Source: Chrysomallon squamiferum (lineage: Eukaryota > Animalia > Mollusca). Taken from it: a stretch of 64,000 bases of DNA. A program made the position numbers and the translations under genes. Position 1 is the first letter of the stretch; every line of letters starts with the position of its first letter. Shown here piece after piece: positions 9,846 through 52,705 of the stretch. The stretch is from assembly GCA_012295275.1 (NCBI GenBank), contig CM022665.1:23746001-23810000 (forward strand), written 5' to 3'. Below the pieces are notes generated by a model. The model saw nothing but the letters and a program-made list of their open reading frames with translations. It had not been told where the DNA came from and did not search any database.

Positions 9846-9877
<32 letters not shown>

Positions 9878-14359: not shown

Positions 14360-14419
<60 letters not shown>

Positions 14420-17400: not shown

Positions 17401-17782
17401 ACTGTTAATGCCAGTGACATTAACATTTAAATAACTTTAAACTTAAAACAAAAACATATCCAGATATTTTAATTACAAATTTATTCTTTCTGACAGAACT
17501 CTGTGCACACTGAAATATTAAATAAGAAATTTAAAAACACATCCAAACATTTATTTACACTAAATTACCTGAACTGGCCTGCAGTTGTCACTCAGAAGAG
17601 TGAATTGTGGATTTTGCCAAGCTTGGAAAAGAACTTCCATGTTGCAAATCTGTTCCTATTTGAAAAATAAGTAAACAAGCAAAATGAATGAATATTTGTA
17701 CGTTTAACAACATCTCAGCAAATTTTACATCAACTGTTTGATGTCATGCAGACTACGTTAATAAAACTGTTTATAAATCAGA

Positions 17783-17823
<41 letters not shown>

Positions 17824-18140
17824 TTATAAGAATGCTTAATAACACCTCATTACATTTTAGAGTTATCAGGACTTGTTTGTGTTGGTGAGAGAAAGTGTAA
17901 CAGTGAATGTTTTTCACTGGAGCAAACAAAATTAAATTTATCTAACGGAGAAACTGATCCGAGACAGAAAAAAAGTATTATTTTATCACAACAACACTAA
18001 CCATGCCACCGTTTGTCTGAGGACATTCCCCTAGTCCCTTTCCTTTGTTTACATCACTGTTTCTGCATGATGTCTCAACCAAATGTACAGTAAAATAGTA
18101 TTTCATTCCAGCTACAACCTGAAATAATCACAAAACAATG

Positions 18141-18175
<35 letters not shown>

Positions 18176-21100
18176 ATAGTGAAATATTTTATAAACTTGA
18201 AATTTATAGAAAAATAAATTGGTAGGTGTTCATTTTTCAGAACGAATTCTATTTTCATGTAACAAGCTGACTCGTTTGTGTTCTAATATAAATACAAACA
18301 AGAAAATAAATAAAATTTTACAAATATTTTATCTAAATATATTATGAATAAAATGACATATCATTTCAAATATTATATTTTTATTTGCTTTGTTTTAAAA
18401 ATTCAAAATGAGAAACATTAATAAGAAATGAATAAATTATTATTTTGAAAAACAAAAAAAAAACAAAAAAACACATGTTTTGATGTAATACCTGGTGATG
18501 AACATTGCTAACTGAATTGGCAGCTAATCGGAACAACGAATTGGACTTCGCATTAACTTCATCAACTGCAAATGCAACAGCTTTCTGGACTTCTTTAGTA
18601 AGGTGACCTGGTTCAACACCACCAAGAACATTTCTAACTTGTCGCTTCCTAGAAGCAGAACAACGCTTTTCAAGCAGGACATAACTGTCCAACCAGACCT
18701 GTGTCCAAAGCACAAGATGACATCTCTCTTGCTGAAAATGAAACAAAATTTATTTTATCTTTTACTTCAGAATAATTTCACTTGAATTCAAATAAATATA
18801 AAGGTAAAGGTAACTTAATTCCATGTAAAATTTAAACACAACAAAGCCAGACTTTAAATAAGGTTTAATTTTAATTTAATTAACATTATTGGGATGATTT
18901 TGGTTAGTTTTGGTTTCTGTTTTTTTTTTTTGTTGTTGTTGTTTTGTTTGTTTTTTGGGGTGGGAGGAAGTAAGGTTGTTTTTAAAGTTTTAATTTTTAT
19001 TCACATAGAATTACACAAAATAATACACTTGATGAATTAGTTTAATTATTTTATTGTTAAGAGCAGTGCATATTGTCTTCTGGTATATATACTATACCCT
19101 AATAATTGTCTGAAACCCAGATGATCAGTCAGTTAGAATGTAAGAATAACAATCATGAAACATTTCATATTCAACTTCTAATATCTTGATAGAAGCAGTA
19201 ACTTACCACATTCTCATTATGAACTACCAGATCAAAGAAGTACTTTATGCCAGATACAACCTGTAAAATAAATTTTAAGATTAGTTCAGACAGTAGCCCT
19301 TTGAAAATGTATTAATATTTATCTTCATCTAAATCCATAATTATATAAGACATACAAAAACATTTGTTTTGAAACCTTAAGCAACAGAAATACAGACATC
19401 ACTAATATGTAATTTACCATATATATTATGGAGTGACAAATTATTTTGTTTATTTTATCATGCAATTGTTACAAAATTTTTTTTTTTTAATAATAATAAT
19501 AATAATAAAAGGAAGAAAGGAAAAAAGAAAAAGGAAAATAAAGAAAATTGCAGTGGTTATGGATGCAGGTACAGCTATATGCCTCTGCCACATGTAATTA
19601 TCTTTCAGTGCTGTAAAATGATTTTTTGAAACCAAAATAAAAATATACCCTTTCCACAAAGGACAAAGTTAAAGCAAATTAATAATAATTCATTCATTTA
19701 CTAACCATTCAGATGAAACGGCTGAACAGAAAAACTGTGATTAAAATGTTTATCACCAATAACAACTTTAATGCATTAAATAATGATTAGCTTTAGTACA
19801 TTACAGAAATGATATATCATCTTCACCAAAACCAAAAATATTTGTAATTTGTATTTGTAATTTTTGAGAAGAAATACTATGAAAAAGACAATAAACGACT
19901 TGTTCTTTCGGTATATGTTAAAAACACACACAAAATAATTATGATAATTTTCTTTCATTGATCTTTAATCCTAATATTACTAGATACTAATGAATCCTTG
20001 AAATAAAAATAGATATGACCAGAGTTTCTATTTCCCTACCAATACTTCATTCTTATTTTTTTTTTCATTTTTTTTTTTTTTCCCCTTAAAGGTTCAATCC
20101 ACTTAATGACAATTACACTTTTATGAAATGCTGAAAATAAGCCACTAAGGTTAATTAATGATCTGCGCCTGTGATATTTAATGCACATTTATTAAACATT
20201 AAACAAAGGACAACATTATTTTTAACTGTCAAGTTCTTTGGAAAACAAAATATTAATTACTTCCTTTGTAACTAAACAACTGTTTTTAATTTTTCAGTCT
20301 GTTTTCAGTAACTGTTCCAAAAACAATCCTAACCCTCAGAATATAGAGTCTTCAATAGTTTATTATTCATGATCAACATGCTGTTACTAACTGCAACTGT
20401 TTTATATTGTACTGGGGTTTTCTTTAATGATCTTATCTGTATAGTAATGACCAATACAAAATTAACAGTTAATTAGACAAAAAAATAAAAAATAAAAATA
20501 ATAACCATAGCATCATTAATTTTGTCTTTCCTTGTTACTTGCTCTGTATTATATACTAGGTCACTGATTAGATTAAATTTCTTAAAATCAACTGGCTTTC
20601 ACATACACAAACGTCAGTATTTTCATAGATGGCCTGCTGCATTATAAAACAGCACAACATACAAAGACATCAAAAAACTTAGTCACCAGCCTTGTGGAAA
20701 TAAACATAAATTGTTGGTATCAGCACATCAATAAATGATTTTTTTTTCTGATTTCCAAATTCAATTCCCTGACCTTAAGTGTGAACCCTGTGAAGATACA
20801 GAAGTGATTATGACACTGAATAAACTATGGATTTAAAATAGTAACCTATATTGTGATAACAAGGTTACAAAGGTAATCCTTGTGATGATGATGTAACTAT
20901 GTGTATTTGTGTTTGTTCTACAGTGAAATCAAGATAGTGTATCAGACAGAATTTCATGATGTGCAGCTTTGTTTTAATTCAAATGAAACCGATTCAAAAA
21001 TGTATCCGATATGGAAAAATTAGTGAATTTACTACAAAACCATTTCCTGTTAACATAAAATAATAGTTAATATAATAATAATAATAATGAAACAATAATA

Positions 21101-21695
21101 TACTTTTATATATAAAGAAAAATATAAAATTTACTTTATTAAGTAGTGAAATTGCTCATGGAATAGTACATTAATCATCTGATGATACAAATTTATTTTA
21201 TCAATGTTTTTTAACACTAAGTATTTAAAAAAAACGTTGAATGAACACTACCTAAGTAAGCTGAAGGTCATGTTTAAATAAAACAACTAGTTACGTTATT
21301 TCAAATAATTGGGAAATAATATAAAAAAATAAAAATAATAACAATAAAATGAATAATTATTATAATATCTGTCAGTAAAATTAATTAACGTTACTAACAG
21401 TGTGAGTAACAACTTTTATCTCAGTTAATAATTCTCAATATTAATATGTACATATTTTTTTTTTGCAGTGTTTTAATCACGTTACATATTAAATTTAAAA
21501 ACATACTTGTGTTTTTGCTCTCTGTATGGTGACCAACTCTCTGTTAGTGTTCTCTTCTGAATTCAACACTGTCACTGCAATCTGAGCCATTTTCCGTATG
21601 TCTTTGCTTTGGACATTAGCGTTTACCGGCCCACCTACGAGTCCTCCCAAACCAAAAACTGTTGGTAAAAACACCAACAAAATTAAAATATTCAT
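5628..21695 (-). CDS. CTSF: Cathepsin F-like papain (C1A) cysteine protease with two N-terminal cystatin domains, 15 coding exons, 584 aa
   Basis: Exons 5'->3', all GT-AG and phase-consistent: 21695-21507, 19260-19207, 18731-18492, 18118-18002, 17655-17569, 13360-13147, 12388-12275, 11953-11802, 11493-11397, 8901-8821, 7923-7804, 7336-7272, 6978-6888, 6493-6435, 5702-5628 (1755 nt). Motifs: signal peptide [15 protein letters not shown]; cystatin QVVSG and QVVAG; ERFNAQ-type propeptide [20 protein letters not shown] followed by [16 protein letters not shown]; [25 protein letters not shown] (catalytic Cys); [11 protein letters not shown] (His); YWIIKNSWG (Asn). Confidence 0.95.
6624..6755. repeat. 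Compound (CT)n(CA)n microsatellite
   Basis: Directly visible in the sequence. Confidence 0.95.
12912..13125. repeat. Imperfect (GTA/GCA/ACA)n trinucleotide microsatellite in cathepsin F intron 6
   Basis: About 210 nt of gtagtagca-type triplets. It accounts for the poly-Thr and poly-Val ORF artefacts. Confidence 0.9.
13985..14240 (-). mobile_element. Highly decayed SINE copy in cathepsin F intron 5
   Basis: GC-richer patch with remnants GAGGAAGCTTGCTGCCAC and AACTAGTCACTGGGCAC. Similar remnants occur at 3066-3320. Confidence 0.3.
14330..14430. repeat. (ATT/GTT)n microsatellite
   Basis: Directly visible in the sequence. Confidence 0.9.
17216..17230 (-). CDS. Candidate alternative terminal exon of cathepsin F (VRGE-stop), giving a 233-aa cystatin-only isoform
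   Basis: Minus strand reads ttttaaacag|GTT CGT GGT GAA TGA, about 340 nt after the phase-0 donor of exon 5. AATAAA-like signals lie downstream near 16980-16965. The same exon is present in the duplicate at 35309-35323. Confidence 0.5.
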   Translation of the reverse strand, partial: VRGE

Positions 21696-29871: not shown

Positions 29872-30305
29872 AAAGACACTAGTTTCATCTTTTATACTCA
29901 GATCACAGAGTCACATCTTACGACAGTTATTAATAAAATATCGTAAGGTGTAGATGAAGAAGAAAAAATATTTAAAAGAATAAGAAAAATATAAAGAAGA
30001 CAGGAACGACAGAAGTTCATATTCTACTGAAATCAAACTGGCCGAATTACAAATTCCCTCATTGTTTTTTTTTTTTTTTTTTTCTCCATATGCATTCTAA
30101 TCCTGTACATTGTATGTAATGCCTAACACCCATCCAAGCCCTACATACTGTGCGGGTGGTCCCTGTATAAAATATCAGATTAATAATCGACGTTTATAAC
30201 AGAGGTCGAGTCTGCAGAATCCTGTGTTTTGACTTTATGTCTAGTATAAACCAATAAAATAACTGAGACAAATATGCCAGGAGTTACCTTTTTGAAACTT
30301 ATCAA

Positions 30306-30354
30306 CCAATCATTGGTTTGTGTTCATTACAGTAGAGACGGAACAGTATATAAA
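30306..30354 (+). promoter_or_regulatory. Promoter of the duplicated cystatin gene
   Basis: Same CCAATCATTGG dyad (30306-30316) and a TATATAAA box (30347-30354) upstream of the ATG at 30441. The surrounding sequence has diverged from the parent promoter. Confidence 0.5.
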
Positions 30355-30440
30355 AAACAACAACAGCAGCGATGTTTCATTTGGGAAAGAGGTTACTCAT
30401 TATTTTATTTTATTTTTAGTCAATAGCGAAAACAAAAAAT

Positions 30441-30670
30441 ATGAAGGTTTTTATAATTTTGGTATTTTTACCAGCTGTTTCGGGAAGCCTGGGTGGATTA
30501 ATAAATGCTGATGTGAAAAGCAAAATAGTACAGAAAATGGCTAAAATTGCAGTGGCAGAGTTGAATTCGAAAGAAAATACCAACAGAAGACTAGTATCAG
30601 TAGTGTCAGCCAAGACAAAAGTTTGTATTAATTCTAATTTGTAACGTGATGAAAAAAAAAGTGTAAAAAC

Positions 30671-30701
<31 letters not shown>

Positions 30702-33585
30702 TTACATGTTTACAGAAATGGTATCTTAATAAATTCACTACACTTTGCAATATACCACACAAGTTTTTATTTACAGGCTTCGAACGCGTTTTGGAGTCTT
30801 GGAAAGTTTTGCAAATTCGTCGTAGTGTTTTCCAGGTCCTTAAAAGTTTTGGAAAATCAGGTTTTGTTACCTTGGTTATGGAAAAGTAAAGGAAAATTAT
30901 GTCCTTGCCGCAAATAAAATGTACGAAAATCTGGTTTGTTTCACCAATATTTAGCATCTACTCAAGCCCCGTTTTAGCCAATGTGATGAGGTGCCGGTAT
31001 AGCCTAGCCAAAGAAAATAGTTCCGTTTTGGTAATGCTTCCATTTTAGCCCATTTTAGCCAGATCACGAAAGTTTAGCTCAGGCTATCTGCACAGGCGCG
31101 GGATGCGCATATTGCTAAAAAAAAAATATATATATATATATTTCGTTTCTTGTATTCCAATTTTTTAAATCTGTTTATTAGCAACAGGTACTTGTTGTGA
31201 TAGCGTTAAGTGGTCGCTGTAATTGATTGGTTCACTCCCACTTAGCCTAAAACTTTAAAAATCTGTCTCCCACATAGCCAAAATGATGTTGGGATACCTG
31301 GGTCAGTTGACATTTCCAAGCTTTTGAACAAGATGAAGAAGAGAAAAATATAAGAAAAAGAAGTATCGTGACATTGAAAACAAACTTCAAAATCTGTTTT
31401 CAACAAGGACACGTGCCAGTTCAGGACTATGCCGATGCAGCTTCATTCTACTTTAACTTTTGAATTGTTTCAATGCACATGTTTGAGAACCTCTTCACCG
31501 CTGTTAGTGGATGAAAGAATGAATAAATCATTTGTGTTGGTGTCGAAATGAAGGTGTTTCCAGGTGTTTTATACACTATTTGAAATTGAAAATAAAATTC
31601 ATGTATAACTAATAAAGCGCACCGTTATATAAACTGCCCTCTGATATATATATATAGTCTGAAAAATGTAAACCCAACACAACAATAAATCCAGCTGAAA
31701 TCTTTTAATACACCAAACATTTTAATTTTTAACATTGTATTAAATATAGTGATCAGCTAAAATGGCGCAAGTGAAAACCCGCTGGGTTTATTCCCAATTT
31801 ACAGCAATACGTCACATTAATGACGTCATTGTAGTACACACAGATATAAATAAACATTACCCCGTTGCTTTGTCTGTGTGTTGTGGAGGGGATCTTCGAG
31901 CGTTACCTTATATTTTGTATAGTTTAGCATTAGGGATCTAGGTGGGTGTTTAAGTTTGACAAAAATAACATTGTGTAATATTTGACCGGCGCCTTGATGT
32001 TAGGTTTATTTTTGAGTTTAGGGTTAGGGTTTAGAGCGATGAAAAGAGGGGGAAACGTCTCAGTGTATTGAATTAGTGACAAAGTAAGCACAGTTAGGAA
32101 AAGAGACGTGTCCACTCAAAGAATAAAACTGCATTTTAAAACGCCAAAATAAATTATTTTAATTTTGTTTTTCCTTTATTACTAGTAATACTACATGTAT
32201 GCCATGCAGCTTAGTCAAGGCAAAAGTTTTAAATCTGACAAACGTGTTAAAACTGGAGAAAAAAAACAAACAAATACAAAACACTTTGTGGTAATTGAGT
32301 TTGCTTGGAAATTTGGATTTATAGGCTATGGAAAATTTTGGAAAAATTATGGAAATTTTGACAGCCAAAGGTGTACAAACCCTGTATTTACAAAGGTCAA
32401 ATCCATTTGACTGTTTTGTGAGATCAGTTTCATTTGATTTAAAACAAAGCTGCATATCACGAAAGTCTATCTGATACTCTATCTTGATTTCACTGTAGGA
32501 AAAGCACAAATAGTTAAGTCATCACCACAAGGATTAACTTGGTTATCACAGATCAGGTGACAGTTTTAAATCAACAGATTATTTAGTGCCAGATATTTTA
32601 GTCTTATGATTATTATTATTATTATTATTATTTTTCTCTTTTTTTTTTTTTTTTTCTTTTATTTCAGTTTCTTTTTATCTTTTATATTTTAGCTTTTTAC
32701 TAAGACCAAAATATTTAAAAATTTAAAAAACAAAAAAAAAAAAACCTAATTATCCATTGCACAAACATGCTGAAACATTATTTTTGACATTATTTTGTTT
32801 ACTTCTTTATTCTGAAGAAGTTTGCGCAGGGAAGACCAATGTTATCAATTTTAGAAGCGATATTCTTCGTGTCGGCAATTATTATTATTATTTTTTAAAT
32901 ATAAACAGCGAGCGCTGCTAGTTTCGTATAGTTTTGCACCGACAGATCCGTGCCCAGGGCAAAGGGGAAATAGTCTCCGTTTCAAACAGTTTATTCAGTA
33001 ATTTTGTTAATCAGTAATAAATTTAAATCGTAAGTTGGTTTCAGTTATTTGCACTTAAAACGTAAGAAATCACTCATTTCTGTTTGACAGTGATTGTGAC
33101 TAGCCACTTATTTCCAGTTTGCTGCATAAATATTATTAAAAGTTTTTTTGATTTTTTTAAAGTTGTCAAAGATGTGCATTAACAAGTTTTAAGTGTTTTG
33201 GAACAGTTAGTGAAAACAGTTGTTAATTAATATGTACTAAATAATCAAAAACATTTTTCGATACTAATTTATTTATTTATTTATTTTTTTATGTTTCAAC
33301 AATTTTCAAAGAATTAATGTCAGAACTGATCTTTACCATTCTTTTACAGACTGTTTCTGGGACGAATTACTACTTTGAAGTCATCGTACGCAATGGCGAC
33401 AGTGTAAGCTGCTAGTCATTTTAAAAACTGCATTTATCAAGATACTGAATATTAATAATGTAATGGTACATTAAGCTGAATGTTTTGTGAATAATCCCGC
33501 TCTTATCGACTGATTATCTGGGTTTCAATTATTAACGTACAGTATCTGATGTATCAGATACTACCACTGCTACTATTACTACGTG

Positions 33586-33620
<35 letters not shown>

Positions 33621-35323
33621 ATAATAATAATAATCATAATCATAATAATAATATTAATTATTATTATTATTATTATTGTTATTATTATTATTTTTGTTGT
33701 TATTGTTATTATTATTATTATTAAGCTTAAATTTTACATGAAATTCAGTTAGATTTAAATAAATTAAATTCACGTGGATATTTATATATATATATAAACT
33801 AATTTAAGGTTCGTTTTATTTCCAGGAAGAAAAATGTAATCTTGAACTTTGGTCTCAACCTTGGTTAAACAAGATTACACTTACCAAAAGTAGCTGCGAA
33901 TATACTGACGACTGTGTTAAGAAAAGGAGTGTTCATGAATCAGATGATTTCATTGAAAATATCCAGAAAGCAGTTGATTTTTCAGTTGATGCTCTTAATA
34001 AGAAATCCATTTCAGCAAACCGATTAGTTGCCAATTTACTGACCAGTGTTCATCACCAGGTATTATATCAAAGACGTTTCTTTTTGTCCTTCTTTCTTAA
34101 AATAATGCTTTAAGATTCAGTTAACATTGCTAATCATTAAATCAAAATAGATGATAAGACAGAGATAAATTTCAGAATCATTAATGTTTTAAATGATATA
34201 TTCGTTTTGGCCATAATATATTGACTAATGTTAGATATCAAATATTTGTAAAATTTTAAAAATGGATTTTTTGTTTTGTTGTGTTTTGTATTATATTAGA
34301 ATGCGAAGCAGTCAGCTTATTATATTAAAATAGAATTCGTTCTGAAAATTGAACACATGCCAATTTATTTTGCTATAAATTTCAAGTGTTCAAAATGTTC
34401 CACTTTAGTAAATTTTATATATATATATATTGTGATTTAGTCTATAGCTGGATTGAGGTACACTTTTACTGTACATCTGGTTGAGACATCATGCAGAAAT
34501 AGTGATGCAAACAAAGGAAAGGGACTAGGGGAATGTCCTCAGACAAACGGTGGCATGGTTAGTGTTGTTGTGATAAAATAATACTTTTTTTCTGTCTCGG
34601 ATCAATTCCTCCATTACATAAATTTAATTTTGTTTGATAACTCTAAAATGTAATTATTAAGCATTCTTATAGTTAAACACACACACACACCTGAAATGTA
34701 ATTAGGTGTTATTAATCATTCTTATAATTAAACACACACATACACACCCACACACATTTGATTTATAAACAGTTTTATTAACGTAGTCTGTATGACATCA
34801 AACAGTTGATGTAAAATTTGCTGAGATGTTGTTAAACGTACAAATATTCATTCATTTTGCTTGTTTACTTATTTTTCAAACAGAAACAGATTTGCGAAAT
34901 GGAGGTTATTTTCCATTCTTGGAAACTTCCACATTACACTCTTCTGAGTGACAACTGCAGGCCAGTTCAGGTAATTTAGTGTAAATAAATGTTTGGATGT
35001 ATTTTTAAATTTCTTATTTAATATTTCAGTGTGCACAGAGTTCTGTCAGTAAGAATAAATTTGTAATTAAAATATTTGGATATGTTTTTGTTTTAAGTTT
35101 AAAGTTATTTAAATGTTAATGTCACTGGCATTAACAGTGACCTCAGGTTAATAAGATAATTCACTATTAGACAAAAAATATAGAAATGATAACACTAATT
35201 GCTTGCATAAGAATAATGATTTTATTTTTATTTATTCTGCTCTAGAATAACTAATTTTAGAAGTTCATTAACATTTAATTATGTGCACACTTAAAGCATT
35301 TTAAACAGGTTCGTGGTGAATGA
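30441..35323 (+). CDS. Secreted two-domain cystatin-like protein (228 aa), derived from an inverted partial duplication of cathepsin F
   Basis: Exons 30441-30620 (MKVFIILVFLPAVSGSLGG...SAKTK), 33350-33403 (TVSGTNYYFEVIVRNGDS), 33826-34059 (EEKCNLELWSQPWLNK...VHHQ), 34441-34557 ([18 protein letters not shown]...GGM), 34884-34970 (KQICEMEVIFHSWKLPHY...PVQ), and probable last exon 35309-35323 (VRGE*). All introns are GT-AG and phase 0, with no internal stops. Exon sizes 180/54/234/117/87 match the parent's 189/54/240/117/87, and the cysteines are kept. AATAAA occurs near 35515 and 35534. Confidence 0.8.
30774..32384. mobile_element. Old TA-flanked TIR element (MITE-like), probably with nested insertions, in intron 1 of the cystatin duplicate
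   Basis: Reads TA|CAGGCTTCGAACGC ... GTGTACAAACCCTG|TA (imperfect 14-bp TIR). Multiple TGGAAAA subterminal repeats at both ends (30800-30900 and 32305-32360). Confidence 0.55.
33560..33722. repeat. Compound (CTA)n(ATA)n(ATT)n microsatellite
   Basis: Directly visible; intronic. Confidence 0.9.
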
Positions 35324-35370
35324 GGATAACTTCATCTGGAAGTCAAAGATTGTTAGTTTGGTCATTTAAT
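34465..35370. repeat. Near-identical inverted repeat arm matching about 18095-17170
   Basis: Reverse complement of the parent from exon 4 into intron 5. About 3 differences in the ~340 nt after exon 5; indels around the (CA)n tract. Confidence 0.9.
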
Positions 35371-35552
35371 TTTTTTTTTTTTTTTTTTTTATATTTTTAC
35401 AGTGAACTCTGTGTGTTTGGGCAGTTAGCATGTGTCATCGATGATAGTAACAGCTTCACTGAGAGAGTTTTTTTTATTTATTTCTCTTCTTACATGTCTA
35501 AATTACTTATGATAAATAAATTAACATATTAAGAATAAAATAATTTTGACCT

Positions 35553-35624: not shown

Positions 35625-38600
35625 ATTTTGTATTTACCTTTTTACTTTTAATATAACATACTTTTACTTTTCTTTGCTTTCTATTTTTCTAATTTTTAGC
35701 TTGGCTTTACTAATTTTGTAGTAGAAAAAAACCCAAAAGCAAATATACATTAAAAAAAGGAGAATGTCAAATAGATTTCCTCATAATCTTGTTGAAATTC
35801 TCTCTTCACAAAAATGAAATTTTTTAAAATTATTTTAATTAAATACTTCATCCGGTTCAGTTTTATTTCACTATACAACAAATCAAAATTACATATTCAG
35901 GAATCACATCGTATATTCTGTTACCACAGTGATTCGTTCTACATAGTAAATTAAACCATATAGATATAAAACTAAATCGCCGTATAAGATACTGAATCTA
36001 TGTTATTTACAAATATGCTGTGCACAGAAAACAACTCATCTCATCAGCATATAAAATCTAATAACTGACCAATAACCCTAGAAGCTTTAATTTAAAACGA
36101 AGAGTACAAGTTAAAAAGAAGAAGAAGACGAAGAAGACGCGCATTAATAAGTCTGCCAGTAAACAAACGGAACACATTAGTATTCATGGACATTAAATTA
36201 TGTACACACCTTAGCTGGAGGCGATGAACATCAGCGGTTTCGATAATATGCTTCGTCGCTTATAACTGAATAATGATGCAACCTTATAATTAATTATTCT
36301 GTTATAATAATTAAATTTGTTTCGCTTTTACCGTATGATGTAATTTTCTTTTAACAGTTCTATTCTTCAGTATACAATTAAATTAAATTTTCAATATTCA
36401 TTAAGATACTGTTATTTTTATTTTATTTACTTCTTTTTTCTTTTTTTTTTTTATTAATCTTCAGTTTATTAAATTAAATACACTTTTTGAAGTTTTAAAA
36501 GTTACTTAAACGTGCATTAAACTAACCGCCTCTTGTAAAATTAAAAATATCCCCATTTCTCTTATTAAACATCCATACTGATGGAGTAGTACGTATTTTT
36601 GTTAATGTTACCTATTATTAGTTATCTATTTATATGTGTATGAAGTATCACTTGCTAAATTAAAATCATCTGATTTACAGAGGGCTCACTTTCTAATATC
36701 ATATTTCATGCCGAACAGTAACAGCCTGAGAAAATATATGATTTTAGACTTTTAAATTACTTGCTCATAGCTTAAGAGAATCAACTAAATTATTAAAATA
36801 TTTACCTCTGTTACAGTTATAATTCTTAAACAAGTGAAAATACGTATTTAGCCGTTCTAAGCCACAGTTGTATTACATTTAATTTATCAACAGTAGGTGT
36901 CAGCTTCTGATACAAAATTTAATGATTTTATAAACTTGGGTAAAATGTCAAAGTCACTGATGTACCACGTCATTAAATTATACAGAAAAAAATAAAATAA
37001 AATAAAATAAAAAAATTGTTTCGTTCTAGTCATCAGTACACAGTGACAGCATGTTATTCAGCGTGTAAATAAATATAACTTTCAATATATAAATATATAT
37101 TCAGTACAACATGCTCTTTACCAAAACAGTCGTGTTAATAATATACCAGTCATTCACATTGAAACATTAGTCAGTTTTTGTAAATGAAAAATGAAGAAAA
37201 CTGATCTGCTTTGTAAATAACTCAGTTTGTGTTAGACTGTGGCTGCGAGAGATTGTTGTATTAAACAAATTTTGGCCTTAGAGTATAATGGTGCTAAGGA
37301 CCTCGGAGTGACCGGTCACAGACAGGTAAAAGCGAAAGCCTGTTTAACTGTATGTATGTAAATAACAAGTAATTCATCGAAGTAAATATTAGTTCCATAT
37401 GTATTATTATGTAACTACGTAGCCTGTTCACCGAGGGAAAATACAGGAAATATTTCAGGACAGTTTTATATCAAAGGAACCACTCGTAAAAATGACAACC
37501 AAAAGAAAGTCATCGCGATGTTAAATTATTTATTACGTTTTCTTTTCTTTTTAAAATAGAAACAAACAAAAAAAAAAAAAAAAAAAAAAAGTAAAAAAGG
37601 TCAAGTATATTACATTTATATTTTATTATGGTCCCTTCCGCTACCACCTTTCATTCATTTTTGGTTGTGATCTATTAACTGCCAGGTAAGCGACGGTAAT
37701 GTTGTTTAAGGGTTTTTGTTGTTTTTTAATTATTATTATTATTTTGTTACGCCTGATATATGGAATAGAAGCTGAGAAAATGACTTACAGACTTTATTTA
37801 AAAGTTTTCTCATAATTTCCTATTAATTAAGATGTTTTTTTCTACATTTGCCATGGTGTTCTTTAACGATGCCAAAAAGTATTCATACAGGTCAATTCAT
37901 GTCATTTAATCAACTTTATTTATTAAATAAATAATTACGCATAATGTTTGGTTTATTTGTTTGTTATTGTTGTTTTTTTGTTCTTTTTTTTTCACATCTT
38001 AAAATTGGTGGCAAAATGTGCTTCTTATCGTGTGATGCATTTTCTTAATCTATGTAAATTTATTTGGATATATCTTGTGCAAAAACAAACAAAAGAAATA
38101 TAATTTTACTTATTGATAATTTAACGATTGCACTTTGCCCGATAGAACCAAATGTTATGCTATTTCTCAAAAAGTATATACAACTATTAATAATATTCCA
38201 TTGTGGTTTTGATAGTATTCTATTGTTTTATCGTATATTTTTAATTTTCGTGAAGCATCAATGTTTAGTATTTATTTATATATATTGAAAACATTTTTTT
38301 TTTTTTTTTTTTTTAATTCGCCCATTTCAAGAACAATGACCCAGCTATGCATTTTTATCAGAACTGGAACTGGTCGAGTTACACCTGTTGGGTGACGTAA
38401 CGACCACCCTTTTGCAAACTGATTATTAGCAAATATTGTTTAGTTTTATTTCATAATAAAATCTCAAATTTCAAAACTTAAAATTGTAATAATAAACTTG
38501 ATAGTTTGCATTTGCTTCAGATGAATGCAAACCAAACATAAGCTTTGTTTGCATCAGTTGAGCTTTGATTCATTTTCCTTATATCGAAATACGGAAGGCG

Positions 38601-40141: not shown

Positions 40142-41049
40142 TTAAATTTCATAGATTTTGTAAAGATTTAAATTTATTTTGTTGTTTCAGAGCTTGTTGA
40201 CTGTGACAAGTTGGATGAAGGATGTGGTGGAGGACTGCCGTCCAATGCTTACAAAGCCATCATGAAATTAGGTGAAAAATCACAAAACCTCACAATTTGA
40301 AAATGTTTCTTTTTTCATAACACTCAGTGAGCTCTTTTAAATAGCATACAGAGTTTAATAAATATAAATCAGTGTGAATAGTCATTGTAGTTAAAAAGTA
40401 TTTTACAAAACATTTATCCATTTATGTTTGAATTGTTATGTATACACAGTTATGTCTTTGTGAACAGGCACTGAAATTAAAAAGTATTTTGTAAAATATT
40501 TATCTGTGTGTGTTATGTATACACAATTATATCTTTTGCTGTGTTTGTTATGAATTGTTATATATAGTTATTTTTTATGAATTGCTGGTGGGCTGAAGTA
40601 TTTTATGTGAAAGTGAGATTATTCATTTAACCGTGTTTTTTTAATTGTTACATTTACATATTTACTTGTTTTGTACAATGAAATGATTATAAAAAGAAAT
40701 AACTTCTGTCTACAAAATAATAAAAAATAAAAAGATATCAAAAAGGAAAATGTGATGACAAATTTTTTTAGAAATGGGTATTAAGTTGTTTTGATTAACA
40801 AGATTATGTGAGAGTGTTTGGCAGATATTCTGATTATGACATTATTATTTGATAATCTATCCAGATGTATGTAATTTTTCATTGCTATTTGTCTTTCAAA
40901 AAAGATCTTGTCTATTTAATTCTGTAGTAAAATCATCATCTTGTATCTCTGCAGTCCACATCACAAAAACTCAGAATGGCTCTTGATTAAGAAGTCTGCA
41001 GTTAATTTCTCATTTCAGCATTTCATTATTATTATTATTATTTTATTTT

Positions 41050-41085
<36 letters not shown>

Positions 41086-41500
41086 TTTTTTTTTTTTCAG
41101 TCATTTGTTTGTTTGTTTATTGATTTTTTGTGTGTTTGCTAGGCCAGTCAGTTGGTGGTATTTTAATTAAAATCTGAGAGAAGTGACGTACATGTGTTCA
41201 CTGTTTGTAGGAGGACTGGAGTCTGAGAAGGCCTACAGCTACGAGGGAGAGGATGAGAAGTGTACTTTCAACAGGACCAAAGTTGTCGTGAAGATCAATG
41301 GAGCCCTAAATATCTCCAGCAATGAGAAAGGTAAAATACTGTTTTAGTTTGCTTGGTTAAAATGTTTTGTGATGCTCTGTTTAATCAGAAATAATCTTAT
41401 TTGTGTCTATACTTGTTGTTTTTTTTGTTTTTTGTTTTTTCTCAGAAGCTGGTTTCATTTTTTGTTAATTTAAATGTGATTCAGCAATGATAATTTTATT
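40142..41500. repeat. Near-identical inverted repeat arm matching about 8950-7635
   Basis: Reverse complement of the parent region covering exon 10, intron 10 and exon 11. Only scattered substitutions and microsatellite length differences are visible. Confidence 0.9.
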
Positions 41501-41963
41501 TTTAGTTAATACATTAATAGGCAGTATAAAAAATAGTTTATAAATTAAAATCTACATTTTCAATTTATAAAGTCTACCTGATAAACTTGTATATAACATG
41601 GTATTATGTAATGTAATATTGAACACTTTTTGAATTTGCGTATTATTCAACTTTATTGTTGTTTCAGCTGTTGATAAATATATTTTTTAGATTTTTTACA
41701 GAGCTCAAAAACTGACGTTTTGATATGTAAAAACTGTTGTGTACAAAAATATGTCTGACATTAACAAGTGAATCAAATAGGATATCACCATTTTTATAAT
41801 TTTTGTGTTGATGTTGGTTTTGGGGATGTCATTTCATTATTTGGGATTTTTTGAATTTTTTTTTTTCTGTTGTTATGTTTTTAATATCATTTCTGCCGAA
41901 CATTTTAAATTTTAGCAGTTTTATATGGGAGGATTTTCATATCCTGGGAAAATTGTCCACAAC
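40191..41963 (+). pseudogene. Orphan protease-domain exons of the cathepsin F duplicate
   Basis: 40191-40271 ([21 protein letters not shown]...) and 41211-41330 ([11 protein letters not shown]...) are identical to parent exons 10 and 11. 41919-41963 is a decayed exon 13 (FYMGGFSYPGKIVHN vs [15 protein letters not shown]) that ends before the catalytic His. I found no counterparts of exons 6-9, 12, 14 or 15. Confidence 0.85.
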
Positions 41964-42527: not shown

Positions 42528-44643
42528 AAACAAAAAATATAAAAAATAAATAAAAAATAAAAAATAATATATAATAAAGTTAATCTGTTATTTAAAAATA
42601 AAATAACTGCAGTGCCAACATTTGTGTTAAGGGAGAGCACTGCTAGATAAAATGTACTGCATGGCGTGACAGATTTTTCTTGACTATTTATGGAGTACCA
42701 TAGTCCGAGTACATCATCTATTCACTTTTTCTTCTATTTTCAGAGCTACTCAAGAGTAGGGATTAAATATTGCTGTGAGCAATTGATAGAATCGAAGAAC
42801 CATTGTTATTCAGTTCTTCCAGATCAAATGTTTGATTATAATCTCTACTTACTAATGAACATTCTACATTAGTTACCTGCATTAAATAGTTATTTTATAA
42901 TCCATTCATTTCAGTTGTTTGATTTGAAATAACAGGTTTTCTTCACTAAATCTACTTTGTACTTTTCTTTAAGATTTTAACAATCTCTTAATTTTTCTTT
43001 ACTATTTGTAATTTAAAGAGTGGTCTTTTATTTATTATTTACAGAATTTATTAGATTACTATCATTAAAAAATACTATTCCTTCAATTGCTAGATCATTC
43101 GTATTACAAATATTATTCTTTAAATTGCTAACCAATTCAAATTACAAACTGAAGGCTTTATTTTCAGAATCAGGATGCATCTTATAATACACAGCAGAAC
43201 CAACTGTATTTTACTAGTATACCACAATTTAATCAGTACGAATAAAAATATTATGATAAATGTATTGTATGTTTGTTTTTAACAATAGTCATCTTAAAGT
43301 AACAAAATAAAGGTAAACTTCTGCAAATTTGAAACATATTGTTTATAACAAAAGCCATGTTATAATCTCACTAATAACTGGAGTAACAAGTATGCAGTGG
43401 AAGATTAAACTGAAGAGATAACTGAAAGTCAATCAAGTTTCTGTAAATATTTATTCATATTTTTCAAAGAACCAAAATGGTGATGACAACACAGGCCTAC
43501 AACAAAGTAATCTCACCCGCATCTTTTGAACAAGATTTTTTCTAATCCTTTCAGTGAATCCAAATGAATTATTATTCTTCATTTTTCTGAATTTCCTTCT
43601 TTTATATGGCAGGCAAGATAATTATTTGTGCAGAACAAACATTTACTTTTACAGTGAAAAAAAAAAAAAAAAAAATGAAAATGTACATATGTGATCATGA
43701 ATACAGTGAAAACTAATTACACAAAAAATTCATTAATGTAAATTTGAGTTATATACCTCAAATAAAATTCTATTCTACATTTTGTCTGTAGTTGGTACAG
43801 GTTCATCTTGTAAATGGTAAAAAGTCAACATTTCACATATACAGAGCATAAACACTATCTGATCGTCTTCCTAAAAAAAAGTGTATCAAAACATTTTCTA
43901 ACTTTTGGATGCTGAATTACATCTCCTATTTCTACACTGAGCAGATATTTTCTATGTTTGTGGTACAGGCTGTTGCAAAGAAATAAAAACTTGGTTTAAA
44001 GTTTAAGGAATTTTTATCCTACTTCATTTCCATTTTTTTTTAAAATGCTACATTTTCACCGTCTTCATTACATGTTAATAAATAAACAACAGGTATCATT
44101 TGTGGTTTTTGATTTAAGCATATTTCAGCATTTCTAGATCAATGTTACATACAACAGAGTTCAAAATGGAAATTTTATGGCTAAAGTTTAATCATTTAAA
44201 AAAAAAAAAAAATTCCTGTTTAAGGCATCTTCTGTAAAGAATATGCTTCTGATTATGTGTGATTAAAATTTTTGAATATATCAGATAGAGCATCTTGGGA
44301 GCTAGGTTAGAAAAATAATCATTTTTACCAAAATGTTAAGACATAAAAATATTTACATAAAGTCTATACGAGATAAACTGAAGACAGTGTCTTAAAAACA
44401 AGACGAAAAACATTGCGGATATACTTCCTAACTGTTTAGAAATTACATACAAAGATTATACACCAATGAACAATAAAAAACAGAAAACAAAAAACGAAAT
44501 ACACCACAGAAATACATCTCGAATTGTTATAAACTCGATAAAAAGACACGGATTACTCTACATATGAAAAAACAGTATGACAAATGCTGCAAAATCAATA
44601 TTAACACGTAAGCTTGCACCCAAGTATAAAGTTCAGTCTGCGT

Positions 44644-46762
44644 TTATTTCTGGTAGCTGCCATAGTACTGACTGTACTGTCCACCACTGCCATAGGATCC
44701 CTGATTTCCCCAACCACTGCTCCCACTGCTGCCTCCATAGCCTTGGCCCCAGTTTTGCTGCTGGTTCCAGTTTTGACCATAGCCTTGACTGCTTTGAGGA
44801 TTCTGGTTGTACCCACTCCACTGAAATGTAAACAAGTTTTTATTTATTTATGGAGTCTTTATATCTTCATTCAATCTATTTATTACACCAACATTGTTTT
44901 CAACAAAACGTTCAGTGCTTTTTTTAAGGAAAAAAAATGGGGAAAAAATAAAATAAAATAAAATAGAAATGAATGTGCCTTAACAATGTATTAAAAATCT
45001 GTACATAGTTTGTGGGACATGCTCTGTAAACTGAAAGTAAATTTATTTCAGCCAACTTACATTTCCTCCATAGCCTGTCTGGCCTTGGTGACCCCAGGAG
45101 CCCTGACCAGTCCACTGATTCTGGTTCCCTCCCCAAGAGCTGCCTTGGTTCCCGCCACCCCAGGCACCTTTGCTATTCCACGAAGAACTCTGACCATAGC
45201 CACCACCACCACCTCCACTACGATTTCGTGCTTGGTTGCGGTCCTGCATGATACAAAAGTAAATAAATAGTAACAACTTTTTTGGGAAGATGGGGGAGCC
45301 TTAATTGTAAGTTAAGATAAAAAGGAAAGAAAAAAGTTCAAATTAGCTGTCTGACAGTAGTGTAAACAAATACCATTCTTCAATCTATTTTTGGCAAACC
45401 AAAAATAGATTAATGTTCAAACTTACGTAAGATCTGTCTGAAGAGCCGCCATATGAAGTACGCCTACTGTCCTGGTATCTGTCATTGTATCGACCACCAC
45501 CTCCACCACCACCTCCATAGCTTCGATAACCACCTGCAAGTATATATTACATCATTTACATCTGTTTAAAACCCTAATTTAAACAAACTTTTTAAAAATA
45601 AATATTAGTCCATTCAATCAAAACTTCTTAACAATTATTTTCACAATTATTATTTATATATTGGTTATATTTTTATCATTGTTAAATCAGAAATGAATGC
45701 TAAAGGCTTGTTTAAACAAATTCTTTAGAATCCTTTCATAAAAATCAGAATATCTATGAAGCAATCTCCGAAGCTTAAATAATGGTACATTTTTAAACGG
45801 TTTATATTCTACCCACCATCACCACGATAGTTAGATCCACCACCTCTGTAACCTCGGTCTCTGTATCCTCCACGTCCTCCATACCTGTCACGTTCACCAC
45901 CCCCACTGTGATAACCACCTCGCCTGTCATAATTGTATCCACCTCTTCCACCTGTAAAATCATCTGTAATGTATAAATGTTTTGCAGTGCTTTTAAAAAT
46001 TATAATATTTTGGTAATTTTTCGAAATGTTCCAGAATTTTTACAACAGATATACAAAATCTGATCAATTTTTTTTTAATTTCATCACAAGCAAGTTATAT
46101 ATATATACATACAAGAATTTCTTTTCAGGGATAAAAGGTAAAAAAAACCACAAACATGTACAAATTGTTTTCACTTGGGACATTATTTCTCAAGAGTTTG
46201 ACAACAGATGGTTGAACTCACTTTTGGGCGTTCACCACCACGCCATCTTTTTTCTGGTGGAGGAAGAAGATCCTGAGCTTCTTTGCGATATTTGTCAACA
46301 AGCTCTTTACAAGTCTCCCCTTCCAGATCAGTGTATATTATTTCATCAAACAGCTGTCCAGTCTCTGGCAGTGTGAAGTTGGCTAGAAAATAGAAGTACC
46401 AGCATTAGAAAAATAGAGGGAATGTGAAATCCAAAGCCCATGGATTTCTCAATAGTTCTATACAGACTGGTGGGAAATCCACGAGGGTCATTAAAACATC
46501 TACTGTACCCAATACCTTTTATGAAGATAAAGGATGAAAGCTTGTTTCGAAGACATGCGAATGGTGTGCTCTCTACAGAGAAGCATTATCTATATTTTAG
46601 TCAGGAAATACAAGTGGCAACTGGTGCCAAGCCAAGTTTCGGCTGGCCCTACCTTTCATTTCTAGCACAGCTTTTTCCGGAACCTCTTTGCCCTCTTCCT
46701 TCTCTCTAAGTTCTGTGCGGGTTTTGAAATCCTCCTCAGTGGGGACTACGACAACTGCTTTG

Positions 46763-46803
<41 letters not shown>

Positions 46804-49800
46804 TGATGCATACACATTTGTCTATTACGGTGATAAAGAATATAATTCATTATTTTGCCTCTTGTTGTCGATATCCAGATGGTGTCAATTTTGGATGTTA
46901 TAATTGACAATCTTAATAATCATTTAATGGTTATTTCGGCAACTGTTGATATCTGCAACATACTTGAAGAAATACATGTTACATTTGTTTTGTTTCATCA
47001 TATTCGACATTCCTTGTCGTGTATCCTGCTGGTGTTAAACCTCACCTACCTTGTGGAGCGACTAAACTACGTTTGATCAAAATACAAATTCACATTCACC
47101 CTCATGGCTCGACACCTTTAGGAATTACATTAGTGTGTTTTAAAGATTATTAAGTGAAATTTATTAACAAATGACAAAACAGCAAGTTATCGGGGGAATT
47201 TTTTTTTTTTAAATGAAACAGTAAAATGGTGTTAATGTACGAGTAATTCTTATAATGAATATAGAATTTCTGGATTTAAAATTTTATGTTTGTTGCTGTT
47301 TTTGGGTTGTTGTTTTTTTATTACATCAAGTAACATTTCCTCAACAACGACTAAAATAATAAAGAAATTCTGTTTATTAATCTAACAAGTCAATTTAAAT
47401 CAGCATAATGAAAAATGAACAAAAACAACTGCCTGGAATAACACAAGACTAAAATATGGAGGATCAGTTTAATTTAATTCTCGGTTTTTGAAGAATTCTC
47501 TTACTGACATTCATTTTATTCAGACAACAATTGTAAAACTGCTTTTATCAAGTTAAAGCAACTGGGTGTTTTCTTCTGAATTACTATGCTGAATAATTAT
47601 CCTTTACAGAGCCAACATACATGTACTGATCCAACACAAATGAATTATACTTATTTAAAAATTAACTGAAATCCATTTCCTTTGTTTTGTATGACTTAAA
47701 GATTTTTTAAAATATATATGGTTAATACTAGAGATCAATTGGAATTATTATTCTTTTTAGATTTTTTATTTTTTTTTATTTTTTTTTTCAGAATAAACGA
47801 GTGTCTCTGAGCCAGGAGGGTGCCAAAACTTACTCTGTCATTCTCCAGTACTTGTGGATAATCTGGTATAATTTAAGTTACCTACCTTACTTTATCTTGA
47901 AAGAGATCATCTAACTACAACCTATCATCACCTACCTTATAAAGGGGGAGGGGGGAATAAAGGCAACCTGCTATTACCTACCTTAGCTGAAAAGAAAAAC
48001 AAAATGAACTGAAAAAAAAAACCTGAAAAGTAAAGCATTCAAACTCACCTGGCAGTTGTATCTGTAGACATTTCATTTTTTTAATTTTTTATTTCTCTTA
48101 ATCAATTTAAATCTGTTGAAACCACAAGGCTCCTTGTCATGTCACTTATGAGTTATTTCCATGTCACTTACTATCGTTTGCACTATAGATGGACTAACGT
48201 ACCTGATCCAGTATGTAGTTGTGCTTCTTTCTGGCAGCTATCTCAATCATTCGGTTAAGACACTTGGTCGATTTGTCAATCAACACATCCCATCTGCCAG
48301 CATAGTTCTTCTTTCGTGGAAGGCCCATCACCTAAAATTTATATACTCTTAAGTTATTCAAGTCTCCAACATTTATTTCAGAGTTCTTGTATCTTATGAA
48401 TCTGATACATTTGTTTTGAATATCTTTAATCCAAATGAATGCAACATGAAAACAACCTGATATTTATGTAAACTTTTTGCTGTTTATGAAAACAGAATAT
48501 CTATTATCAGTCAAAATACTGATGACATCACTGCATACTACACCAAATATATTTCTTTTAAATTTAAGATAATGGGAAAATGTAACAACAAAGAATATAA
48601 TTTTCACACTTTTATAAAAAATATGTTATCAGAAGCATGTCCATTTATAAGGGATACCTCAGTTTGAATATCACATATGTATCTTTGTAACTGATATACT
48701 GAATGTTTACAATTCAAAGTACGACGGCTTTTGAAACGAAATAAAAAAATTAGTAATCTACTATAAAGGTTTTCAAAAACGTTAAATTGGAATACAAATA
48801 CTTACTTTCATTTTATCAATTATATTGTTTGTGCCAAGGATAAAGTATCTGTTGTTAGGATTAGCAGCACTGTGTTTTTCTGCCCAATGTGTCTTCCCAG
48901 CACCAGGCAATCCAACCATCATGATGATCTGCACAAGATACGATAAAGCATTATGAAATAAAAATATCACAAACAACATGGTATCTCAAAAACAGCTTAA
49001 TATGTCCATAGTTTAATTTTAAAATCATCAATAAATATTTCAGTTACCATAAAAACCATATGCAGCCTTACAATAACCCAAAATTTCTTTGGTAATTTTT
49101 TTGGTTGATTATATACAAGAAAATAAAATAAATAAAGTTCTTCAGCCAATATACAGAGAACAAAATGTTTTAAATTATTCAACTTCATACTTCAAAACTT
49201 TCATAAGCATACCTCACAGTCTTCTTTTTTGGCTGGTGGCATTGAACCTCGCACCCTCTTATCTTCTTCAAGCAAACCAATAAATGTATAACCTTCTGTC
49301 AGTGGAAACCACGGTTCCTCCTTTATGAAAAAAAAGAGGTTTTTTTTATAATAAATTTGTAGAAAAAACACAAACAAAACCAAAGAAAAAAAGAACCTTG
49401 AATAACCAAAATAATTTTTATTGTTCTATCACTTTCTATAAAAGTAATAAAGCATAAACGAAATATTATTTTTAAAAGTAATTTATATGACATTTTGCCA
49501 GTCTCTATCAGACTTTTTCTTCTCTTAATCAGAACTTCAAAACAACTTTAATTTATCTTTTTCTACCAAAATATATTAAACTGTAAAACTTGTTATTTCA
49601 CACTACCTTTTGTCCAAAATTGCATTCAAATTCTGTGTTCTTGGTCAAAATGTGTGGAAACAGGGCAGCATCTCCAAGGGTAGATTTCTCAATTTCAAAA
49701 CAAGTTCCCAGATCTTGACCATTCTTTGAATATGACATAACAACTGGGTCACTGTCCATATCCTTTGGGGAAATAAATTTGAATATTAAACATAATAAAT

Positions 49801-52674
49801 GGGGTGTTTGTTTTTGAATAAATTTTAACGTTTTTCTATCAAGACTTCATAAAATGAATGATTATTATTAACAAACTTACCAGATATGCAGTGATGACAT
49901 CTCCCTCTGAAAACTTTTCACCATAGTCTTTGAAATTGCATTCTGTTGAAGCTTTCCCTGTCCCTCCATAGCCATAGGAGAGTGGCTCTTCACCTGTAAC
50001 AGTAACATTAAGAAATACTCATTTCACAAGATTAAATGTTTTTAAAAGTGATGATGGAATATTTTGATGGTGACTAACATAGTAACTCCAATAAATTTAA
50101 ATAAATTTTCTCAAAATAACAAAAGGCTCACACTGTGAAGTGCCTACCCAAAACATTATCTGCCTTGTTGTGGGTGTGTATATATATATATATATATACT
50201 GATGATAAAAAATTTGAATTACTGAAATTGAATAGTTATTACAGAAATTGAACCTCTTTATTGAAATTAAGCAGTTTATGCATGTATGGGGAAGTCAAAA
50301 TTATGTCTTATAGCAATCACAAATGGTAATTAATAATTTCTGAAAGTATCTTTAAACTGAATTAGAACATTATAAACACTGATTCTCTAAGTATAGCTAT
50401 GGTTTTCACAAAAGAACCTGAAAATAATGCAAACATATGGCACACTAAAACTTACATAAGTGCACAACAGTATTTAAAAAAAAAAAAATTGGCAGTTTTG
50501 ACCGAAGGAAAACTCATCTACATGTAATTAAAGCCAGTAAGTATCTGAGAAAAGCAATACTTACCAAGCTGAAGAGATGTGGAATCAGCAGACCAGCCAA
50601 CTCTAACAACATGAGGATTACACTCATCTGAAGGAAGATGTTCAACATTCAGATTCTCCAAAACCTGAAAGGTTTTAGAGCTATTATTTTCAGTGTAAAT
50701 ATAATAATAACAATAATAAGAGAATCTATTGAATACAAATGAAACTATAATTATAAACTTCCTTAAAGTTGAACAACAACTTTTAACTTGCCTTCACTTC
50801 ATAAGCAATCTTTCCACTGTTGACACCAAACATGGAGCGTACACCTGCCCACATAAAAGCAAAACCTTCTACTGTCAAAGGATGAGCTTTGTATCCATTT
50901 TCATCCATTCTTATTGTCAAATCACAATTATCTGGAAAACCACAAAAATAAAAATAAATAAATTAAGAACTGATGAATGTTTAAATGAAATTTGCACCAT
51001 CTAGTATTAATATTTGTTTTGATATCCTGCATCAGAAAACCTGTTTGCAGCTTTGATATTCTGCTTAACTCTTTTTATTTTACAAAATAAAATAGAACAG
51101 TAAGTAGTGCACTATCAAGCCAAATGAAAAAAATTATATATATTAATAATCAACTTACATCTGTCAAGTTTGACAGCTGTCTCAGATTCCCAGCTTTCAT
51201 CATCCATCTCAGGTGGAGGACGCCTGAAATAATTTTTTATACATAATCAACATAAATAACACATTCATCCTTTTCTAAATTCATTTATCACACACTGACC
51301 CTTTTTGTAATCAATACGACACTTGTTTTCAGTATTCATGACCATTTTTTTTTTTTTGCACTTCAGTTTTAAAAATTTTTAAAAGAAAATGACAAAATAT
51401 GAAATGAATGTCTATAGATTACGATAGTAATACAATTGTACAAATATTTTTTAAAATGTCATAGAATTTACAGCAAAGATGTCTAAATGTAAAAAAAAAA
51501 AGGCATGGACTGATGACAGAGAAATACAGATGACATGAAATGATTCTAAAAGCTAATTTCATACCTATTTCTTTCCCGTGATCTGGAACGTGATCGATGT
51601 CTTTCCCTGTCCCGGGATCGCCTCCTTTCACGTGACCTTGACCGCGATCGGGATCGGGATCGTTTTCTCTTCTGACTGTGCTTTTTATCATCATCTACCA
51701 CAAAACAAATTAAAAACATAATAATTTTTTCACTGAATTTGCATTGGATTTATTTTGGAAGAAGACTATTACCATGGCAACTGTAAACTATCATTTATTT
51801 TATCAATAATATAATTTTATCATCTGATAATATACCTCAAAATAAACATCACTATTTCTTAAGGAATCCTGAGTTTTAGTTAAAAATTATGCTCACCTTT
51901 GCTGTCCTCCATTTCACCGGTTTCATCAATTGTCTGATATTCCTCATTAACATCATCAGTTGCAGGTGCTTGCTCTCCATTTTCCTGTCTACTCTCCTGC
52001 ACCATCATAGGTTCTTCCTTCCTTTCTGTTGCCTCTTCCTTTTTCTCCACCTGCTCAATTTGTTGTTCTTCCACCATTTCTTGCTGTTCTTCCTCCTTAA
52101 CCATTTGTTCTTTCTTGTCCAATTGTTCTTCCTTGTGTGCATTTTCTTCTTCCATTTTCACAGCAGGTTCTTCGGTTTTCACTGGTGGTTCTTCTGTCTT
52201 CAGTGGTGGTTCTTCTGTACTCACTGGTGGTTCTTCTGTCTTCAGTGGTGGTTCTTCTGTCTTCACATCTGTTTCTTTCATTTCTTCTTTTTCTTCAGCA
52301 ACCTTTTCAATACAACATTAAAATGTTTATAGCAATTTAAGGTTTTTTAATAAATGTACATTTTATATACAAAGACGACTATATCCTTGCCCATTTAATA
52401 ATGTTAGAAAAATCTATAAAAATTACCACAACAGTGGCAGCTGGCTCAGGTTCCTGCTTCAGTTCAGGTTCAGTTACTGCTGGCTGAACCTCTGGTTCTT
52501 GTGTAGGTGTTTCTTGCTGTACAACACTGCTATTTTGTTCAGTCTGACTTGTGTCATGTTCTGTTTGACTGTCATCTTGCGATTCATCACCAAAACTTTC
52601 ATCCCCACCACCACCACCACCAACTTGATTATCAGCCGATGGTTCTAAAAAAGTAATATTTTATAAACAATTAA

Positions 52675-52705
<31 letters not shown>

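Follow-up and report, generated by a model that had tools for sequence, protein, structure and literature searches.

The window, meaning the whole analysed stretch of 64,000 nucleotides from the mollusc Chrysomallon squamiferum (29% G+C), holds a cathepsin F gene and an inverted duplicate of it whose open frame covers cystatin domains only, the two arms lying ~17 kb apart and the matching pieces of the duplicate spanning about 30.4–43.4 kb. The parent gene, parent B (5628–21695, reverse strand), recognised from its open frame, Pfam matches and homology, encodes a gastropod-type cathepsin F of 584 amino acids in 15 coding exons. Behind a signal peptide (a hydrophobic N-terminus), the protein carries two cystatin domains, followed by an I29 propeptide and a C1A peptidase, and one open frame takes in all of these along with the catalytic Cys, His and Asn motifs. 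Among 126 proteins, the nearest to the parent is the cathepsin F-like P0034 of Gigantopelta aegis (90% identity over 213 mature residues), with Haliotis next at 83%, and the best solved-structure match of the homologue P0002 is human cathepsin F (1m6d). Other searches added little: none of 99 candidates was a homologue of parent exon 3, exon 3 returned weak plant cystatin matches only among solved structures, and all ESM Atlas matches fell below 0.9.

The parent yields two splice forms, one giving the full cathepsin F and the other a two-domain cystatin that ends at a stop codon. Parent exon 5 (17569–17655, reverse strand), identified by alignment as the counterpart of the exon discussed below, is spliced in the RNA runs X8 and X9. 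In X9 its donor joins an alternative terminal exon (16759–17155, reverse strand) that opens with the stop codon TGA, the joint running from 17569 to 17155 with GT..AG ends, and the same donor in X9 also joins cathepsin exon 6 at 13360. Two loose contig ends at this donor in X8 fit alternative splicing. A candidate terminal exon reading VRGE* at 17230 (35309 in the duplicate) was dropped, as the RNA joint leads to 17155. A dispersed repeat (16715–16875) lies in or beside the 3' exon of the short form, and many unrelated contigs match there.

The duplicate gene, copy A (30441–35405, forward strand), is predicted from its open frame, GT-AG splice sites and Pfam Cystatin matches to encode a secreted cystatin-fold protein of two domains and 224 amino acids. 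Its exons (30441–30620, 33350–33403, 33826–34059, 34441–34557 and 34884–34970, forward strand) specify a hydrophobic N-terminus and retain four cysteines, the number needed for two disulfide pairs, with the Pfam matches on exons 1 and 3. A predicted terminal exon from 35403 (forward strand) opens with TGA; its acceptor, placed by reference to the RNA joint of the parent, is retained at 35402, AATAAA occurs at 35515 and 35534, and copy A presumably ends there as the short form of the parent does. The peptidase domain is absent from this open frame, and the protease exons of the A arm are lost, decayed or orphaned: parent exons 6–9, 12, 14 and 15 gave no blastn match on the arm at E<=0.01, in a search that also missed the old exon 2, so that decayed protease remnants may exist, exon 13 is decayed, and exons 10–11 are orphaned at 100% identity to those of the parent. 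The RNA evidence for copy A is one 202-base contig of depth 3.1, starting at the exon 3 acceptor with seven unmatched letters, which is only a hint that the gene is spliced and weakly expressed, as contig depth cannot rank genes.

Several further features of the locus were observed. The interdomain linker of copy A (~33910–33935) carries an extra, seventh cysteine and a KKR basic site where the parent has RKR, possibly a dimer link and a processing site, respectively. Upstream of exon 1 in both genes (30305–30355; 21805–21750), a CCAAT-containing block and a TATA-like box are kept. Elsewhere in the window, a multi-exon gene on the reverse strand (44600–53570) has SAP, SPRY and AAA_33 Pfam matches and RGG-rich exons, and resembles the hnRNP U family.

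A divergence island between homogenised flanks

Global alignment of 33780–35520 with the reverse complement of 17040–18780 places 12 substitutions in 34884–34937, at 34884, 34896, 34898, 34904, 34908, 34916, 34917, 34923, 34926, 34927, 34934 and 34936, and a thirteenth at 34881, position -3 of the splice acceptor. The resulting divergence island (34881–34936, forward strand) thus comprises the acceptor -3 base and codons 1–18 of copy A exon 5, with 13 substitutions in 56 columns and no indel. The amino acid is altered in nine of the 18 codons and one further change is silent, corresponding in a Nei-Gojobori count to 11 replacement differences and one silent difference. Around the island, copy A and the parent are almost identical: the exon 5 tail (34937–34970) differs at none of 34 bases, the 3' end of intron 4 (34757–34880, forward strand) at two of 124, and the bases downstream of exon 5 at three of the first 340 and still three of 403 up to 35373, giving 3/437 for the whole downstream flank (34937–35373, forward strand). 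These figures reproduce those of the preliminary description, which had counted 12 differences in 54 nt with nine amino-acid changes and one synonymous change, an identical exon tail, and about two and three flanking differences upstream and downstream. The clustering is extreme, since 100,000 shuffles of 18 substitutions over 617 columns never gave 13 in 56, and the island differs from its flanks (13/56 against 5/561) at P=4e-11 by Fisher's test.

The flanks had been described as ~99% identical, which holds around exon 5, but the zone is local, and the rest of the duplicate is 13–25% diverged (13–20% in intron 3, 25% in the exon 3 tail). Homogenisation begins just past the first-hairpin codons of exon 4. 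The hairpin part itself (34441–34463, forward strand) has eight differences in 23 bases, seven of them replacement, and reads QSIAG in copy A and QVVAG in the parent, while the tract that follows (34464–34636, forward strand) differs at three of 94 columns in the rest of exon 4 (3%) and four of 79 at the start of intron 4. A non-coding break within intron 4 (34637–34756, forward strand) combines a duplication in copy A, an insertion in the parent and a CA repeat, and is spanned by an A-type contig in the runs X2 and X4. Intron 5 is 0.7% diverged, and exon 5 makes up ~4% of the homogenised columns. A second homogenised tract on the A arm (40150–41585, forward strand) has 26 substitutions in 1393 columns (1.9%), includes the two orphan protease exons, which lie past the predicted stop of copy A, and contains a non-coding mini-island of six substitutions in 36 columns (40630–40665); it is likely to represent recent conversion in non-functional DNA.

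Domain 1 has a very different apparent age. Copy A and the parent differ there at 61% of their silent sites (dS 1.24) and 29% of their replacement sites (dN 0.36), and their proteins are 51% identical, about as far apart as each is from Gigantopelta (52% and 53%); whether the duplication came before or after the Gigantopelta split was not settled by a domain 1 tree (65% support). These divergences, together with the open frame, show that the duplicate is old and was kept under purifying selection. Because a single duplication date cannot give such mixed divergences, repeated gene conversion between the arms would be the simplest cause of the mosaic. Some 150 non-coding bases at 37085–37238 are ~95% identical to 16000–15850 within less similar surroundings, and may mark either an earlier episode of conversion or an element under conservation.

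Public sequencing runs gave a view of the island beyond the assembly. Eight of 11 listed runs were examined (five DNA, two RNA and one from another organism), nine runs containing the stretch, and the run from the other organism (X10) yielded short unrelated matches only. Four of the five DNA runs (X1, X2, X4 and X5, from three studies) contain the A-type and parent-type islands as separate contigs, and in X1, X4 and X5 both island contigs end 30 bases past the last difference, which indicates that they share the flank; the downstream flank is a single common contig in the same three runs. The low-depth run X3 (~4) lists only the A-type island, in contigs that show presence and not absence, and the contigs listed for the RNA runs X8 and X9 have the parent-type island only. 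X1 matches the alleles of the window and may be the source of the assembly, so that three independent runs from three studies remain. With both versions found in four of five DNA runs, the picture of fixation is one drawn from unphased contigs and a small sample.

Conversion has occurred recently and as close as ~14 bases to the island, the best sign being a pair of alleles at 34863 and 34867 that vary by run. Both copies in the window lack them; X2 and X4 carry them on the parent-type contig alone, and in X5 each of the two island contigs has them. They lie 14–18 bases from the island, whose 13 sites are unchanged in every contig listed. Their linkage to the island is direct, as they fall within one 31-base word of its first site. 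The shared polymorphism accordingly consists of this one linked pair, with the SNPs farther out ambiguous: the X1 flank contig mixes A and parent alleles, so that deeper intron 5 SNPs are unassignable to both copies, and the proposal that all flank SNPs (35083, 35168 and 35183) are common to both was dropped, X1 suggesting that contigs merge single-base bubbles. In X2, the A-type contig also carries a two-base amino-acid-changing variant at 34960–34961 in the exon 5 tail, absent from the parent-type contig.

Changed residues in cystatin domain 2

The island (34881–34936) falls on strand beta-4, the second hairpin and the start of beta-5 of cystatin domain 2 in an AlphaFold model of P0034, the nearest named homologue, built on a 60-sequence alignment with pLDDT >90 over domain 2 and describing the homologue rather than copy A; its position over the second hairpin, proposed earlier from the letters, is thereby borne out. 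In the model, strands 205–214 and 222–231 flank a seven-residue loop (215–221). At this tip, five of the seven residues differ between copy A and the parent, with Trp and Pro retained; of the other four island changes, two lie just beside the tip and two at the strand's far, starting end, and a Cys and inner strand residues are also kept.

The second hairpin, the QxVxG hairpin and an N-terminal Gly form the wedge that enters the active site of papain, according to the available text of two reports (PMC2553070, PMC2784779). All three elements differ from the parent in domain 2 of copy A. The LGG trunk of the parent has become an acidic stretch with the Gly-Gly lost, the trunk glycine being given in the accessible part of one report as a feature of papain-inhibiting type 2 cystatins (PMC2553070). 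The first hairpin (eight codons of exon 4) has seven replacement differences and one silent, and reads QSIAG in place of QxVxG. The second hairpin, (P)W in type 2 cystatins that inhibit papain, has SW where the parent, Gigantopelta, Haliotis and Patella have AW, the Trp being kept. Among 58 homologous domains, which are not independent of each other (four are from Haliotis), Ile occurs at the Val position of QxVxG in nine and the preceding Ser in none; copy A further has Ile where Asn stands in 56 of the 58, and His at the hairpin, where Gln is found in 24 and His in none. Copy A is therefore not to be filed as a papain-inhibiting cystatin, given the missing trunk Gly and QxVxG.

Cystatins that inhibit legumain use an asparagine, Asn39 in cystatin E, on the loop after the helix (PMC6109925). 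In the parent, the coil that follows the helix reads SNSL, and its Asn, which to judge by position may be equivalent to Asn39, is replaced by Ile in copy A, whose domain 2 thus does not contain this legumain-inhibition feature. Since copy A has also changed its trunk, its first hairpin and the Asn behind the helix, it may as well have lost inhibition as have been re-targeted. In domain 1, the first hairpin is KTVSG in copy A (Gln to Lys) and QVVSG in the parent, and the two genes are complementary in this region (33826–33920; 18731–18660), copy A keeping the Gigantopelta-like QPW alongside KTVSG and the parent having QVVSG alongside QVW.

The divergence does not belong to the copy alone: polarised by Gigantopelta, three of the nine island differences are derived in copy A and two in the parent, with four not polarised, so at least two of the nine arose in the parent. 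Over the domain 2 helix, first hairpin and island together, which are its unconverted parts, the branch to copy A is nonetheless the longer, at 0.74 against 0.18 for the parent.

Selection, chance or fold

The interpretation first put forward was that conversion homogenised the flanks while selection preserved or drove the difference at the loop. Its first half has stood up, in that the flanks are real and the conversion recent to ~14 bases from the island, whereas a codon-level signal of selection was not recovered: dN/dS of the island (0.30/0.12) is not significantly above 1, with 2.0 silent differences expected and one seen (P=0.38). The share of replacement differences (11 of 12) gives P=0.38 against neutrality and P=0.04 against domain 1. 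In location tests that are all post hoc, silent differences are fewer in the island (1/9 sites) than in domain 1 (32/53; P=0.0075) while replacement divergence is not depleted (24% against 29%), but the silent deficit vanishes against nearer backgrounds, with P=0.34 for the exon 3 tail (6/23) and P=0.56 for intron 3. With both hairpins pooled, replacement divergence exceeds that of intron 3 (18/62 against 50/305; P=0.019), and the island taken alone shows no excess over the same intron (P=0.13).

It is likely, rather than proven, that the island persists through selection against conversion tracts that cross a changed binding surface. The arms would pair and exchange short tracts, conversion would repeatedly copy the flanks, and tracts crossing the hairpin codons would be removed by selection. 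Coding parts off the papain-binding wedge (the rest of exon 4 and the exon 5 tail, 97–100% identical) would be interchangeable between the copies, and those forming the wedge (trunk, first hairpin and second hairpin) and the helix side would not. Given that tracts can be copied in both directions, the island would be stable only with the parent loop unfit in copy A and the A loop likewise unfit in the parent. Selection on copy A is favoured, because if purifying selection acted on the parent and nowhere else, tracts copied from the parent into copy A could still wipe out the island, and one such tract stopped 14 bases short of it. Domain 2 of copy A would then fold and be secreted, and its surface, changed and co-adapted, would serve either a different partner or weak binding of a papain-like protease, although the loss of conserved inhibitory residues also fits relaxed constraint. 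A bolder form of this reading, which we advance tentatively, is that the splice form of cathepsin F that encodes the inhibitor part alone gave rise to a new two-domain secreted protein, once an inverted duplication had been made and protease exons had been lost, and that this protein was re-aimed at a different target, with conversion acting as a natural saturation screen. If so, conversion would map the residues that are needed (both hairpins, the trunk and the post-helix loop) against those that are interchangeable.

The alternative that survives best, although we consider it somewhat improbable, is that the second domain of copy A, no longer acting as an inhibitor, drifted near-neutrally until a chance cluster of mismatches blocked conversion tracts, the position over the loop being coincidental and purifying selection on the parent helping by blocking A-to-parent transfer. 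An island dN/dS compatible with 1 is what such drift predicts, and the 23% divergence of the island is close to that of unconverted intron 3 and the exon 3 tail; the conserved inhibitory residues are lost in copy A, and breaks persist in non-coding DNA too, as in the intron 4 indel patch and the mini-island at 40630–40665. Neutral toy models of mismatch-limited conversion, which are single-lineage and have parameters chosen by the analyst, did produce such islands, at most in 3/60 runs of one setting, but only rarely overall (4/2,400 and 8/3,840 runs, or 12/6,240). Against a purely mismatch-based barrier, the island contains no indel and conversion nevertheless comes as close as 14 bases, tract edges coincide with both hairpins, and copy A retains all four cysteines, the Trp and the Pro as well as its reading frame and splice sites.

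It is also conceivable, though unlikely, that in each copy the residues of the island have become co-adapted to the neighbouring strand and helix, which have themselves diverged, such that chimeras would misfold and no new target need be invoked. Four of the nine changes do lie in strands, outside the hairpin tip, differences arose on both lineages, and compensatory sites act in this way in frog ATP1A1, as described in the available text of that study (bioRxiv 10.1101/2020.08.04.234435). Constraint from folding sits poorly, however, with the differences at five of the seven tip residues, where the fold would lead one to expect exposure, and with the free exchange of the rest of exon 4.

That the pattern is an artefact, in which collapse or polishing equalised the flanks or the two versions are alleles, is scarcely credible: no listed contig spans the whole stretch and inverted repeats can be mis-polished, but both versions are joined to the same flanks in independent short-read runs, each arm sits in its own diverged surroundings, and domain 1, at 51% protein identity, is far beyond allelic variation.

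Relation to known systems

Invertebrate cathepsin F proteins with N-terminal cystatins, including those of Gigantopelta aegis (P0034) and Haliotis (P0040–P0045), have the same layout as the parent. A multicystatin cathepsin F precursor is likewise known from Manduca; it was not met in the literature search. Four cystatin domains are described for the cathepsin F of Sycanus in the accessible text of the report (PMC12653315). The present locus differs from these in having a free cystatin transcript, made by way of an alternative terminal exon, and a duplicate that encodes the cystatin part alone. In searches of the literature outside subscription journals, no account was found of cathepsin F transcripts that encode cystatin domains alone or of cystatin genes that arose from cathepsin F, which is weak evidence that this route to a stand-alone cystatin is new. 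A parallel is offered by subfunctionalisation of splice forms after duplication, in which, in the available part of the source, a duplicate retains one ancestral form (PMC4417111), as here. Since the parent still makes both forms, the outcome at this locus is one of asymmetric specialisation with no clean partition. The locus shows in any case how a protease gene can give rise, through an alternative terminal exon, to a stand-alone gene of inhibitor type.

Duplicated, positively selected cystatins of bracoviruses also display amino-acid change concentrated near the protease-binding wedge, but in the accessible text of that study (PMC2553070) most sites under selection belong to the N-terminal segment and the first hairpin, and gene conversion plays no part.

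Closer in mechanism are the primate red/green opsins (exon 5), human RHCE/RHD and the Drosophila MFS transporter pair CG18281/CG17637, for which the available texts describe paralogue divergence that peaks locally at a functional site, between introns that have been converted and amid polymorphism shared by the copies, as here (PMC3924837, PMC2588116). In comparison with the cases as presented there, the peak at the present locus is only 56 bases wide and conversion covers a small part of the gene. The control used by those authors, according to the same texts, was a flat profile of orthologous divergence (PMC3924837, PMC2588116). The ATP1A1 R and S genes of Leptodactylus frogs are likewise old linked duplicates with non-allelic conversion, in which amino-acid differences are kept at the ligand-contact region, and the part of the paper available cites the opsins, RHCE/RHD and the fly transporter pair as precedents (bioRxiv 10.1101/2020.08.04.234435). 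Judged by that text, the frog pattern extends across five species and is joined to an assay, whereas the present one comes from one species and its sequence; the arms here are inverted, and the copy has no enzyme domain.

The locus is thus a fresh example of a known divergence-peak signature, with an unusual gene origin. Few conversion-resistant peaks are tied to a structurally understood binding site, and a small secreted cystatin domain is easily expressed and assayed, which would allow new function, compensatory fit and neglect to be told apart directly.
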